31,991 nt of DNA, from contig JAFVWD010000090.1 in NCBI GenBank assembly GCA_017501865.1, positions 1 to 31,991 on the forward strand, given 5' to 3'. The DNA is from Clostridia bacterium. Lineage in GTDB: Bacteria; Bacillota; Clostridia; Oscillospirales; Acutalibacteraceae. A model generated the notes under the pieces. That model did not search any database. It was not told where the DNA came from and worked only from the letters and a program-made list of their open reading frames with translations. Positions 359-31,991 of the stretch are shown piece by piece (the first letter of the stretch is position 1; each line of letters begins with the position of its first letter). The position numbers and the translations under genes are program-made.

Positions 359-2593
359 ATGAATTTTGAACAATGGAACGGCTTCGTTGACGGTGAATGG
401 CGTCATATTATTGACGTAAGAGACTTCATTCAGAGAAACTACACTCCTTACCACGGCGATTCTGAATTTTTAAAGGGTGCTACTGAAAGAACAAAGAATT
501 TAACTAAAAAATTCTATGACCTCTGTGAGGAAGAGAAAAAGGCCGGCGGCGTGCTTGATATTGATACTGAAAACGTATCCTCTCTTTGCAGTTATGCACC
601 CGGCTACCTTGATAAAGAAAACGAGCTTATAGTCGGTGTTCAGACAGATGCACCTTTAAAAAGAGGGGTTCATCCGTTCGGCGGTATAAGAATGGCAAGA
701 GATGCCTGTAAGGCTTATGGCTATGAGCTTTCTCAGAAGGTTGAGGATTATTTCAAATACAGAACTACCCACAATGACGGTGTTTTCAGAATTTACACCG
801 ATGAAATGCGTGCTGCCCGTCACTGTGCTCTTTTAACAGGTCTTCCTGATGCTTACGGTCGCGGAAGAATAATAGGCGACTACAGAAGAATTGCACTCTA
901 CGGTATAGATGCACTTATTGAAAAAAAGAAAGAGGATAAGCGCTTAATCGGCTTAGAAAATGCTTCTGCAGAATCTATGAATTTACTCGAAGAGCTGTAC
1001 AAGCAAATTGAGTTCTTAGGTCTTCTTAAAGAAATGGCAAAAATGTATGGCTTTGATATTTCAAAACCTGCTTCAAATGCAAAAGAAGCAATTCAATGGA
1101 CATATTTCGGTTACCTCGCTGCTAATAAAGAGCAGAACGGTGCTGCTATGTCATTCGGCAGAACAAGTACCTTCTTCGATATTTATATCGAAAGAGATAT
1201 TGCTGCAGGTGTTCTCACCGAGGAGCAGGCGCAGGAGCTTATTGATGATTTAGTTTTAAAGCTTCGTATGTGCCGTCACTTAAGAACCCCTGAATATAAT
1301 GAGCTTTTCGGCGGAGATCCTATGTGGATTACAGAAAGTGTCGGAGGTATGGGTGAGGATAACCGTACTCTCGTTACAAAAACATCTTTCCGTATGCTTA
1401 ACACTCTTCGCACTCTCGGCCCTGCTCCCGAACCGAACCTTACTGTTCTCTGGAGCTACCGTTTGCCTGACGGCTTCAAAAAATTCTGTGCAAAGCTTTC
1501 TATAGAAACAGATGCAATTCAATATGAAAATGACGATTTAATGAGAAACGATTACGGCGATGACTATGCTATTGCCTGCTGTGTTTCTGCAATGAAGGTC
1601 GGCAAGCAAATGCAGTTCTTCGGTGCAAGAACAAACCTTGCAAAGCTTTTACTTCTTACTCTTAACGGCGGTGTTGACAATGTTTTCGGCACCAAGGTCG
1701 GTCCTCAGATGGATGTTATGGATGATGATGTTCTCGACTTTAATACTGTTATGGAAAGATTCAGAATTTACCTTTCATGGCTTTGCAGACTTTACGTCAA
1801 TACAATGAATACAATTCACTTTATGCATGACAAGTATGCATATGAAAGAACCCAGCTTGCACTTCATAATACCGATGTTGAACGTCTTATGGCTTTCGGT
1901 GTTGCAGGTCTTTCAGTTATTGCCGACTCACTTTCTGCAATTAAATATGCACGTGTTACTCCTATAAAGGATGAAGAAACAGGCCTTATTGTAGACTTTA
2001 AGGTTGAGGGTGATTTCCCTAAATTCGGTAATGATGATGAAAGAGTTGACCTGATTGCTCAGAACCTTATACGCGATACTATTACTGAGCTCAGAAAAAC
2101 TCCGACTTACAGAAATGCTATTCATACACTTTCTGTTCTTACCATTACTTCTAATGTTGTTTACGGTAAGAAAACAGGTGCTACTCCTGACGGCAGAAAA
2201 AAGGGTGAACCATTTGCTCCGGGTGCTAACCCGATGCATAACCGCGAAACGAACGGTGCGCTTGCTTCACTTAACTCTGTTGCAAAGCTTTCTTATTGCG
2301 ATGCGCGTGACGGTATTTCGAACACCTTCTCTATTGTTCCTGAGGCTCTCGGTAATAATATGGATGACAGAGTCGAAAACCTCGTAAGCATTCTTAACGG
2401 TTACTTCCTTAATAATGCCCACCACATAAATGTAAACGTTTTAAACAGAGAAACTCTCCTTAAGGCATATGAGCATCCGGAAGATTACCCGAACCTTACT
2501 ATACGTGTTTCAGGTTACGCGGTTAACTTCTGCAAGCTTTCTAAAGAACAGCAAAAAGAGGTTATTATGAGAACCTTCCACGAAGCAGTATAA
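359..2593 (+). CDS. pflB: Pyruvate formate-lyase (formate C-acetyltransferase)
   Basis: Contains the active-site Cys-Cys (IACCVSAM) and the glycyl-radical motif RVSGYAV. Start moved from 323 to ATG 359, which follows the RBS AAGGAG. Confidence 0.97.
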
Positions 2594-30405: not shown

Positions 30406-31194
30406 ATGCAGGATGTATTTTGTGATTTAAAATTAACAGGCATTGCTTCATCTCTTTGTAATGCTTTAGGAGTAAGCGCTCCTGAGCAGAGTGAAAAGTC
30501 TGTTGAGGTACTCGATAAATTTACTGAAAATAAAAAAACAGACAGAATTTTAATGTATAATCCTGATGCCGTTGCGCTCTGGATTTACGAAAAATATACC
30601 GGTCTTTTTTCTGATGTAATGCTTAATACACAGCTTACATTACCGTTAAAAACAGTTATGCCTTCTGTAACACCTGTTTGCTTCGGTACAATGTACACAG
30701 GTGCAGAACCTGCAGTTCACGGTATTCAGAGCTACACAAAGCCTGTTATTAAAACCGATTCGGTTTTTGATGCACTTATAAGAGCAGGTAAGAAGCCCTG
30801 CATAGTTTCAACAGGCAACGACAGTATGTCTAAAATCTTTTTAGAGAGAAATATGGACTACTTCATTGTTGAAAATCCTGATGAGGCAAATGAAAAGGCA
30901 ATAGAGCTCATAAAAGAAGATAAATATGATTTTATTGCCGTTTATAACGGGAATTACGACGGAACCATGCATAAATTCGGTCCCGAGCATGAAAATTCAA
31001 TAGCTGCTTTAAAACATAACATTGCGGCATTCAAAGCTCTCGCAGAAGCAGTTAAGGAAAACTGGAAGGATCACAACACATTAATCGGTTTTGCTCCCGA
31101 CCACGGTTGCCACGAAATTGACGGCGAGTGCGGCAGTCACGGACTTGATATGCCCGAGGATATGAACATAATTCATTTTTATGGGATAATATGA
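30406..31194 (+). CDS. Alkaline phosphatase superfamily protein (NPP/phosphodiesterase-like), cytoplasmic
   Basis: Nucleophile loop MPSVTPVCFGTMYTG, DGTMHKFG, PDHG, GSHG; RBS AAGGAG; no signal peptide. Confidence 0.82.
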   Translation: MQDVFCDLKLTGIASSLCNALGVSAPEQSEKSVEVLDKFTENKKTDRILMYNPDAVALWIYEKYTGLFSDVMLNTQLTLPLKTVMPSVTPVCFGTMYTGAEPAVHGIQSYTKPVIKTDSVFDALIRAGKKPCIVSTGNDSMSKIFLERNMDYFIVENPDEANEKAIELIKEDKYDFIAVYNGNYDGTMHKFGPEHENSIAALKHNIAAFKALAEAVKENWKDHNTLIGFAPDHGCHEIDGECGSHGLDMPEDMNIIHFYGII

Positions 31195-31204
31195 GATAAG
31201 ATGT

Positions 31205-31434
31205 GTTTGCCTGACGGCAAGTGATGTTACTGCGTAGTGATGTTACTTCGTAGTGATGTTGTTTCACAGTGATGTTGTTTCACAGTGATGTTTTGCCTTT
31301 GGCAAAGTAATTTCAAAAACAACTAAGTTTGCCTTTGGCGAAGCGAATGGCAAACTTAACATCACTTTGCACCGCAGGTGTAAAACATCACTATGCTTTT
31401 GCATAACTTCACTTTCGTCTACGAAAACATCACC
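31205..31434. repeat. Composite element: 5x AGTGATGTT, a central hairpin and 4x AACATCACT, with hairpin spacers
   Basis: AGTGATGTT at 31220, 31236, 31252, 31268 and 31284; AAGTTTGCC/GGCAAACTT stem; AACATCACT at 31358 and 31384, AACTTCACT at 31405, AACATCACC at 31426. Confidence 0.92.
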
Positions 31435-31450
31435 AAAAGGAGTTAGTTTT

Positions 31451-31576
31451 ATGGAAAAATCAGAATTGAGGCAACGAGCTAAAGATTTAGCTATTAAAAT
31501 TTTTTCTATTTGTGATAGCATCGACACTAAAAAAGGTCGTGGCGTTTTAGTAAATCAAATAACTGAGTTTGCCTGA
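31451..31576 (+). pseudogene. Truncated four-helix-bundle protein (TIGR02436/IVS/Avd-like), N-terminal 37 aa only
   Basis: RBS AAAAGGAG. MEKSELRQRAKDLAIKIFSICDSIDTKKGRGVLVNQI resembles the family N-terminus and breaks off where RSxxSIxAN is expected, reading into the second repeat copy (TEFA*). Confidence 0.65.
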
Positions 31577-31699
31577 CGGCAAGTGATGTTGCTTTATGGT
31601 GATGTTACTTCGTAGTGATGTTGTTTCACAGTGATGTTTTGCCTTTGGCAAAGTAATTCAAAAACAACTAAGTTTGCCTTTGGCGAAGTAATATTACTT
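31567..31699. repeat. Second copy of the left arm (4x AGTGATGTT-type units), ending in the palindrome AAGTAATATTACTT
   Basis: 31567-31688 matches 31205-31343 with one 16-bp unit missing, a 1-nt deletion and one changed spacer. Confidence 0.92.
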
Positions 31700-31712
31700 T
31701 TATATCAAAATC

Positions 31713-31752
31713 AAAAAGGATGTAAAAATATTTGTTTTTACATCCTTTTTTT
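31713..31752. terminator. Bidirectional intrinsic terminator
   Basis: AAAAAGGATGTAAAAA / TTTTTACATCCTTTTT perfect stem. Confidence 0.85.
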
Positions 31753-31851
31753 GTACATTTATGTGTGTAAATAAACCCTGTTTCATCAAGGAAAAAAGCC
31801 TATCAAAGCCAGAAAGACAAACTAAAATTCAATAAAATTTACCGAAATAAC

Positions 31852-31991
31852 TTATTTGAATTTTACTATTTCATTAGGTGTGCAATCTATAATTTTACAA
31901 AGTTTTTCAAGTGTGCTCATTGTTATATTTTTATTATTTTTTAATGAATTTAAAGTTCGGTTGTCAATCCCATTTTTCAATAATCTATACT
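31852..31991 (-). CDS. XRE/Cro-C1 family helix-turn-helix regulator, 3' part (begins outside the window; not in the ORF track)
   Basis: Manual translation from 31989: YRLLKNGIDNRTLNSLKNNKNITMSTLEKLCKIIDCTPNEIVKFK*, with the typical TLEKLCxxxDCxPxEI ending. Confidence 0.85.
   Translation of the reverse strand, partial: YRLLKNGIDNRTLNSLKNNKNITMSTLEKLCKIIDCTPNEIVKFK

Follow-up and report, generated by a model that had tools for sequence, protein, structure and literature searches.

We analysed a window of 31,991 nucleotides, which is one whole contig (C50, JAFVWD010000090.1) of the metagenome-assembled genome (MAG) GCA_017501865.1 from a Clostridia bacterium of the Acutalibacteraceae (2.06 Mb in 383 contigs, 37% G+C, 81% complete). 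In the window, a mirrored array of short repeats and hairpins (31205-31450) follows a phosphodiesterase-family gene, past its stop codon and without an intervening terminator, and this array leads into the truncated gene of a four-helix-bundle (4HB) protein. Here we relate the array to the orphan Rfam motif Gut-1 (RF01706) and consider whether Gut-1 arrays and 4HB genes could form one repeat system. The features of the locus are collected in Table 1.

A preliminary description of this DNA had reported mirrored arrays of 9-nt units with a 16-nt period and hairpins, and the coordinates and independent assemblies agree with it. The unit AGTGATGTT starts at 31220, 31236, 31252, 31268 and 31284, strictly every 16 nt (run 31220-31292), while the inverted units start at 31358, 31384, 31405 (AACTTCACT) and 31426 (AACATCACC). 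Across the whole assembly, the window array is the only place where at least three GTGATGTT 8-mers are clustered, and of the 35 copies of the 9-mer in the genome, 10 fall within it. The stretch 31314-31628 recurs exactly in unitigs from three independent studies, and 31457-31942 in those of a fourth; since these unitigs reproduce the junctions, the array is not an assembly artefact.

The 7-nt spacers of the left arm had been described as self-complementary. They are indeed foldable, but are better described as 13-nt mini-hairpins with GAT linkers between them (GTTAC-TGC-GTAGT, GTTAC-TTC-GTAGT and GTTGT-TTC-ACAGT, the last one twice). Each contains only 3 Watson-Crick and 2 G.T pairs, and the stems of relatives, at 6-9 bp, are far stronger. 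Two pairs of spacers are near-identical, which points to recent 16-nt slippage in the left arm. At the centre of the array, the arm-start motif AACTAAGTTTGCC occurs for a third time as the 5' half of the stem, and the 3' half is a mirror image of the left-arm start, which holds for all relatives; the inverted repeat between start and centre is also present in relatives, with different sequences. In the Gut-1 sense the right arm lies on the minus strand, so that the two arms of the window converge. The element runs past 31450: a second copy of the left arm (31567-31690) truncates the gene. Arm copies 1 and 2 thereby form a direct repeat of ~125-140 nt that flanks the right arm and the gene stub.

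The stub is family-like for 38 residues, to ..VNQIT (helix 1 and the beginning of helix 2), and then runs into arm copy 2 and a stop; this junction is reproduced in three independent assemblies, and the duplicated arm, too, is borne out by independent assemblies. It matches positions 2-31 of a 4HB profile hidden Markov model built here (E 5.5e-7), and its best BLAST matches are class-B 4HB proteins. There is no Pfam match at E <= 0.01, and the TIGR02436 search of the genome missed the stub. It does not pass the curated cut-off of TIGR02436/PF05635, and the motif R-S-x-x-S-I-x-A-N-I-x-E of the ~105-position profile lies beyond the break. Judged from its sequence, the window locus is unable to make a 4HB protein. 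Because the gene is only a 41-codon stub, the ribonucleoprotein module that had been suggested at this locus is not supported. Upstream of the stub, the interval between the last unit and the ATG leaves no space for the extended -10 promoter that is found there in most relatives.

Table 1. Features of the array region in the window
Feature	Coordinates	Strand	Description
Promoter-like site	31163..31190	+	TGAACA-16-GATAAT with TG, in the 3' end of the upstream phosphodiesterase-family gene
Opening hairpin	31205..31220	+	GTTTGCC-TGAC-GGCAA(G); aligns to Gut-1 hairpin 1
Left arm	31220..31305	+	five AGTGATGTT units, equal to four 13-nt mini-hairpins and GAT linkers
Closing hairpin of left arm	31293-31305	+	TTGCC-TTT-GGCAA
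Centre stem	31325..31357	+	9 bp, AAGTTTGCC / GGCAAACTT (31325-31333 / 31349-31357)
Right arm	31358..31434	-	four inverted units and three hairpins of 7, 4 and 5 bp
Shine-Dalgarno sequence	31435..31442	+	AAAAGGAG, directly 3' of the last unit
Truncated 4HB gene	31451..31576	+	41 codons, ATG at 31451
Direct copy 2 of left arm	31567..31690	+	4 units, one spacer altered, with arm-start motif
Terminator hairpin	31713..31750		hairpin of 16 perfect base pairs, flanked on either side by A and T runs; bidirectional intrinsic terminator closing the region

On the basis of covariation, Gut-1 (Rfam RF01706) was classed as an RNA (Weinberg et al. 2010, PMC2864571); the paper reports it from human gut sequences and gives no function, context or protein link. 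In the window, the Rfam model matches arm copy 1 at 31198-31264 with 25.5 bits (E 0.01-0.02) and arm copy 2 at 31560-31626 with 22.4 bits, for a cut-off of 50 bits. Elsewhere in this genome and in the genus, sister arrays reach 48-90 bits; through them the locus has a class-level match in Rfam, and the earlier view of an undescribed element has to be given up. Both full-length TIGR02436 genes of the window's genome have mirrored arrays of other units upstream, as do ~12 of 31 4HB genes sampled from the genus and order. The left arms of such arrays reach 67.9, 64.4, 61.9 and 56.8 bits on the gene-sense strand, and their right arms 30-51 bits on the opposite strand. One array of the same genome (C265, unit AGTGATATT, 60.6 bits) bridges to the AGTGATGTT of the window.

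The grammar of these arrays was read from an alignment to a covariance model of our own (R1), which is useful for the arrays of relatives only. The family is a string of hairpins whose stems start with AT and end with GT or AT, joined by a linker of 3 nt (GAA, GAT or TAT); the window array, with its linker GAT and stems starting with GT, fits. It also has the at least three variable hairpins, the constant short linker and the opening hairpin of a Gut-1 array: the left arm contributes the opening hairpin, four mini-hairpins and one 5-bp hairpin, and the right arm three hairpins of 4-7 bp. The opening hairpin of a bona fide arm (L087:7187-7267), ATTTGCC-TGTC-GGCAAGT, is nearly identical to that of the window. 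By its grammar, the intermediates and the synteny with an orthologous locus (L038, see below), and not by model score, the window array is a divergent, partly decayed Gut-1-type array. A naive genome-wide detector (chains of 7-mers with hairpin spacers) gave 805 matches in the window's genome and was discarded as far too permissive.

Carriers of Gut-1 are Clostridia/Oscillospirales MAGs from ruminant, bird and human guts, with the collection labels Acutalibacteraceae, Oscillospiraceae, Ruminococcus, Eubacterium sp. CAG:180 and Christensenella. Each carrier genome has 1-37 matches, many of them at contig ends. The 118 arms in 66 loci form 44 convergent pairs, 2 divergent pairs and no tandem pair. 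A pair consists of one strong arm (G+C 0.45-0.5) and a weaker, AT-rich partner, and an inverted repeat of 11-13 nt, which covaries between loci, connects the strong-arm start with the middle of the pair. The strong arm adjoins a hairpin with a T-run in 37 of the 44 pairs; unlike these, the convergent pair of the window has no terminator upstream. The end of a tRNA gene (of many kinds) or tmRNA gene lies within 45 nt in 30 of 60 loci, and the arrays of L002 and L030 come after 5S rRNA and tRNA. The weak arm is usually followed by an extended -10 promoter and then by a gene.

Three side observations concern these surroundings. Nearly all terminators upstream of strong arms have an A-run before and a T-run after the stem and are therefore bidirectional; they would also stop antisense transcripts that emerge from the array. 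In G000:C80:~600-1500 (minus strand) of the window's genome, two tRNA genes precede a mirrored Gut-1 pair; a repeat of the terminal ~20 nt of the tRNA stands ahead of the terminator, and a promoter and a non-4HB gene come next. This locus exemplifies a solo array with an att-like duplication of the tRNA end. Just past the weak arm of solo pairs in L053, L054, L062, L065, L081 and L096 there is a conserved stretch ..gagggttcgaattcatacgcaaaaa..caaaaatatcttttttgtagcccata.., the start of which resembles a tRNA T-arm and may be the remnant of a duplicated tRNA 3' end.

The preliminary description had suggested testing for an enrichment of such arrays beside TIGR02436 genes, and a strong association was confirmed. 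Among class-B 4HB loci of Oscillospirales MAGs with enough flank, 69 of 74 (93%) are preceded by a Gut-1 pair, with the plus arm 140-270 nt upstream and the minus arm next to it; of the five loci without a detected pair, two carry arrays whose unit R1 overlooks. In 12 loci drawn from the order and genus, the spacing between arm and gene is 141-243 nt, on the same strand. The remaining sampled 4HB genes of the genus (class A) have plain heptamer arrays upstream and the reverse complement downstream. The phyletic distribution was assessed in 150 genomes, each at least 90% complete, that had been drawn evenly from the order. A 4HB gene (TIGR02436) is present in 47 of the 50 genomes with Gut-1 and missing in 3, and it is present in 22 of the 100 genomes lacking Gut-1 and missing in 78, which corresponds to an odds ratio of 55 (Fisher p = 4e-18) in related, non-independent genomes. 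Families f16, f17, f19, f20 and f24 are split into roughly equal parts, and within them both features occur in the same genomes.

The controls gave a different picture. RVT_1 occurs in 17 of the 50 Gut-1-positive and 19 of the 100 Gut-1-negative genomes (odds ratio 2.2), and Y1_Tnp (PF01797) in 19 of 50 and 23 of 100 (odds ratio ~2.0); neither a reverse transcriptase (RVT_1) nor PF01797 was found in the window's genome, at its 81% completeness. A trans-acting reverse transcriptase or HUH nuclease with a matching distribution, as had been proposed, was thus not found with these two markers. Nor do most arrays have a 4HB gene beside them: only ~1 in 10 of the best Gut-1 matches adjoins a 4HB gene, and the other ~90% lie behind stable-RNA terminators. 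The partnership of Gut-1 and 4HB genes was not found in the literature searched.

Two contigs of human faecal viromes that are listed, unverified, as ‘Bacteriophage sp.’ also carry class-B 4HB genes, L193 (MT835590.1:13539-15674) and L194 (MT835815.1:3712-5859). Their proteins are 64% and 53% identical, respectively, to the C335 protein, and upstream of both genes, at the usual distance, there is a Gut-1 arm (59 bits in L193, 45.5 bits in L194); a second arm on the opposite strand (23.3 bits) was found in L193 only. These contigs could represent a transfer vehicle or bacterial DNA in a virome.

Comparison with close relatives revealed turnover at the site. L038 is the ortholog of the locus in another species, and its upstream gene is 89% identical. 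Its outer array is homologous to that of the window, with 1 left and 4 right units, and its closing hairpin differs by a compensatory change from C-G to T-A. Set within this orthologous array is a cassette of 524 nt (L038:926-1469, minus strand; G063:C6) between perfect 19-nt direct repeats, TGTTTTGTCTTCGACAAAG, which themselves contain the hairpin. The cassette consists of a mirrored GCGATAT/ATATCGC array and an intact 4HB gene of 113 aa. In the close relatives L035, L036 and L039, no array follows the orthologous gene. Filled and empty sites with direct repeats, a comparison that the preliminary description had called for, do exist: L038 is a clean filled site and the window represents the empty state. 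L038 also keeps the remnant ATG and the right-hand junction of the window, and the truncation therefore predates the split of the two species. Regarding the earlier idea of a mobile or self-excising cassette, the behaviour as a cassette is seen in L038, but the copy in the window is a relic with a dead gene.

The same comparison bears on the long helix between left and right units that had been put forward. Such a helix folds well, but this is a trivial consequence of the inversion; the unit numbers are unmatched in relatives (1 left versus 4 right in L038), and an inverted repeat encloses the left arm alone. We therefore dismissed it as a conserved feature.

Other relatives carry different sequences at the corresponding position. 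Downstream of the ortholog of the 30406-31194 gene in L034 (~2300-2700; G018:C50) there are plain heptamer arrays and no 4HB gene; the units are of the AATTCGG type with the reverse complement, the TTCTTAA type and the CATCACT type, and the site looks like an ‘empty’ heptamer-armed element. In L041-L044, L046-L048 and L050, 3-4 tandem copies of a ~45-nt module (..aaagaaagggtgagtccaatgtacaagtaaaaacc..) lie ~200-450 nt downstream of the orthologous gene. A conserved hairpin-rich leader, a terminator and a gene starting MKAKITLAKE come after this module, which may be a tandem cis-regulatory RNA.

We propose, with about an even chance of being right, that the feature in the window is the relic of an array-plus-protein repeat system of gut Oscillospirales (Clostridia) that is comparable to REPIN-RAYT or to BIME mosaics, with a different protein. 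The cis-acting repeat would be the Gut-1-type array, with short GC-rich hairpins on a constant linker of 3-7 nt in two converging arms. The trans-acting partner would be the small class-B 4HB protein (TIGR02436/PF05635), whose gene lies directly downstream of one or a few arrays per genome. Solo arrays would spread or persist mostly behind the intrinsic terminators of tRNA, tmRNA and 5S genes, which would offer a safe site, while units of array plus gene would move as cassettes bounded by direct repeats of the hairpin module. At the window locus, recombination between array copies may have produced the ~125-140-nt left-arm repeat around the right arm and the first 38 codons, and the left-arm hairpins would have been reduced to 3 Watson-Crick pairs and multiplied through 16-nt slippage. 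If it is active at all, the locus would act as a solo array. We infer the dependence of the arrays on the protein, their mobility and the acting strand or molecule. As to the latter, we lean towards DNA or single-stranded DNA, because most arrays sit between a terminator and a promoter and the stems are nearly all Watson-Crick.

Several observations weigh against this proposal. Both matches of the window to Gut-1 remain below the gathering score of 50 bits, the right arm is detected neither by the Rfam model nor by R1, and the scores of R1 on the window arrays (~10.5-10.9 bits, E 0.25-0.35) are noise. As the model score is below the cut-off, it is grammar, intermediates and synteny that carry the assignment to Gut-1. 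When the window arms were compared by BLAST with every fetched locus and with the remainder of the genome, the ortholog L038 was the only match, and there is therefore no family at the sequence level. Some arms are highly similar across families, which could reflect purifying selection on a host function and not spread. With regard to the protein, no catalytic activity of the 4HB family is known, no nuclease or recombinase able to move the arrays was identified, and the co-occurrence counts come from genomes that share ancestry. Moreover, the base of the stems carries a conserved U.G, to which 233 of the 243 G.U pairs belong, and this position, together with an asymmetry of the loops between the strands, points to a single-stranded, strand-specific form, which could be RNA.

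Could the arrays then act as structured RNA? In that case they would be transcribed as read-through tails of stable RNAs or as 5' leaders and be bound by a pentameric Avd-like 4HB protein that autoregulates its message, while solo arrays would titrate the protein or be processed, as in a ribonucleoprotein resembling that of an intervening sequence (IVS). Avd, a relative of the 4HB protein family, binds RNA. The U.G at the stem base alternates with Watson-Crick pairs only, with 0 A.C among 115 at one such position, and the 250-nt array region of the window has a predicted folding energy of -86.1 kcal/mol (z = -6.4). In the window, the inner cassette of L038 and L017, the array directly abuts the ribosome-binding site without a promoter between, and must therefore be part of the leader. 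In most loci, on the other hand, arrays lie between an intrinsic terminator upstream and the next promoter, an extended -10, downstream, which places them outside the 4HB mRNA; since the arms are opposite in sense, one transcript cannot carry both in like structural orientation. Internal promoters were not recognised. The promoter-like site upstream of the window array would set a transcription start at ~31197, the first base of the array, but is a weak lead only, as promoter-like sites in the region are not above chance (2 found versus 3.7 expected).

Stem interiors are 97% Watson-Crick, and outside the one conserved position there are 10 G.U versus 21 A.C pairs, that is, no excess of G.U, with counts that are too few to name the strand. 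In alignment A2 (118 arms, loci L003-L112), 188 of 200 distinct hairpins have C-G-closed loops. On the Rfam strand the loops are pyrimidine-rich (TTC 48, TGC 15, TAC 11, TTGC 15, TTAC 15), and the complementary strand has GAA/GCA/GTA triloops and GNRA tetraloops, the GNRA-type loops being distributed 39 versus 1 between the strands. Such loops are classic stable loops of RNA and, in the case of C-GNA-G, of single-stranded DNA. The strand bias as such suits a structured RNA, but the GNRA/GNA loops are opposite to the Rfam strand and, for the strong arm, antisense to read-through. Therefore, Gut-1 may have been published in the wrong orientation, or else single-stranded DNA may be the acting form. 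Even with the covariation on which Rfam and Weinberg et al. (2010; PMC2864571) classed the motif counted in its favour, we consider structured RNA an unlikely explanation.

A double-stranded DNA operator or insulator appears distinctly improbable to us. The units would be binding sites of a regulator, the 4HB protein or another, which represses its own and neighbouring promoters and blocks read-through. The outermost unit of the weak arm overlaps a -35 box, with TTGA[AC]A-N16-18-TANNNT in 15 of 74 class-B loci versus 0.65 expected, and most other class-B loci have extended -10 boxes on inspection. Units are uniform within an array and different between arrays, and a mirrored layout would be natural for DNA-binding sites. 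In the case of the omega repressor of pSM19035, one dimer occupies each 7-bp heptad of an array, and the heptad WATCACW appears to resemble AATATCACT. However, binding to double-stranded DNA does not explain why the palindromy of the spacers is conserved and their sequence is not, and the asymmetry of the loop classes implies a single-stranded form. The 4HB family has no recognised DNA-binding motif (the class-B protein P0002 is near-neutral in charge, judged by eye only), and many arrays, like that of the window, lie between convergent features or lack a promoter. It is very unlikely, finally, that the arrays have no function and are slippage-prone, hairpin-rich junk behind terminators, with 4HB genes hitch-hiking in permissive intergenic sites. 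The recent 16-nt slippage in the left arm (5 units versus 4, with duplicated spacers), the hypervariability of the site among close relatives and the dead gene of the window would all agree with this. It does not account for a stereotyped architecture across many families, with its start motif, C-G-closed loops and 44 convergent versus 2 divergent pairs, nor for a pair at fixed distance in 93% of class-B genes, nor for an odds ratio of 55 versus ~2 for markers of mobile elements.

An extension of the array-plus-protein reading can be offered only tentatively, and we regard it as somewhat unlikely. PF05635/TIGR02436 proteins in general might be dedicated trans-acting partners of Gut-1, heptamer and rRNA intervening-sequence arrays, as a hitherto unrecognised protein-repeat symbiosis and non-HUH analogue of RAYT-REPIN in which each lineage recognises its own unit on the single-stranded hairpin form. 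The recognised strand would then probably be the one with GNRA/GNA loops, opposite to the Rfam model.

Gut-1 has been in Rfam since 2010 as an orphan motif without organism, context or partner, and the 4HB (23S-IVS/Avd-like) family is large, with a function known only in diversity-generating retroelements (DGRs). With our analysis, Gut-1 gains hosts, a fixed genomic grammar of convergent pairs behind stable-RNA terminators and a specific protein partner, which would turn two unexplained objects into one testable system. The window copy is a relic, the value of which lies mainly in its record of unit decay and recombination.

In comparison to Gut-1 itself, the window array has the 5' start motif and opening hairpin, followed by variable hairpins on a constant short linker, and C-G-closed loops are common to both. 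The linker is UGAAAU in the Gut-1 model and GAU-GUU in the window array. The window also differs in its unit AGTGATGTT, its left-arm stems of 3 Watson-Crick and 2 G.T pairs and its fixed 16-nt period, and unlike most Gut-1 arrays of relatives it lies behind a protein-coding gene and not behind a terminator.

The protein family is shared with ORF-bearing 23S rRNA intervening sequences (Coxiella, Leptospira; S23p/PF05635) and with heptamer-armed cassettes. Like intervening sequences, the present system combines inverted arrays of short units with a gene, a link to stable RNA and cassette-like gain and loss. In contrast to intervening sequences and heptamer-armed cassettes, both arms of the window lie upstream of the gene, hairpins stand between the units and the array is not in rRNA; most Gut-1 arrays have no gene, and downstream of the window gene there is a direct copy of the left arm. 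The Rfam scan found no rRNA near the window array, and the array matches neither an intervening sequence nor a heptamer-armed cassette, in which the gene is placed in the loop between two inverted arms. Avd of diversity-generating retroelements has a distantly related pentameric 4HB fold, and the closest solved structures to the 4HB protein, 2RLD and 2GSC, contain 5 chains each. RVT_1 was found neither in the window's genome nor in 33 of the 50 Gut-1-positive genomes, and no pair of template and variable repeats was found. We rejected a diversity-generating retroelement because no reverse transcriptase was found in the window's genome and a coding variable repeat is lacking; the arm copies are non-coding, with an indel of one unit between them. 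CRISPR was rejected as well, the match to CRISPR-DR18 (18.7 bits) being noise. As judged by eye, the units do not fit the GTTRRRY of integron attC sites; no search aimed at an integrase was made.

A parallel is offered by the REP/BIME and REPIN-RAYT elements of proteobacteria, which, like the Gut-1 arrays, are extragenic palindromes at the 3' ends of transcription units, in alternating orientation and tens of copies per genome. PF01797 was found neither in the window's genome nor in 31 of the 50 Gut-1-positive genomes, and the distribution of Y1 transposases does not follow that of the arrays. The likeness to REPIN-RAYT is that of a single-copy protein gene flanked by its own repeats and co-distributed with them, here the 4HB gene and the Gut-1 arrays. 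The two systems differ in what is held constant: in Gut-1 the sequence of the palindrome varies and the linker is constant, and in REPs the reverse is the case. They also differ in the partner, which is a non-catalytic-looking 4HB protein in the Gut-1 system and a Y1 (HUH) transposase in RAYT.

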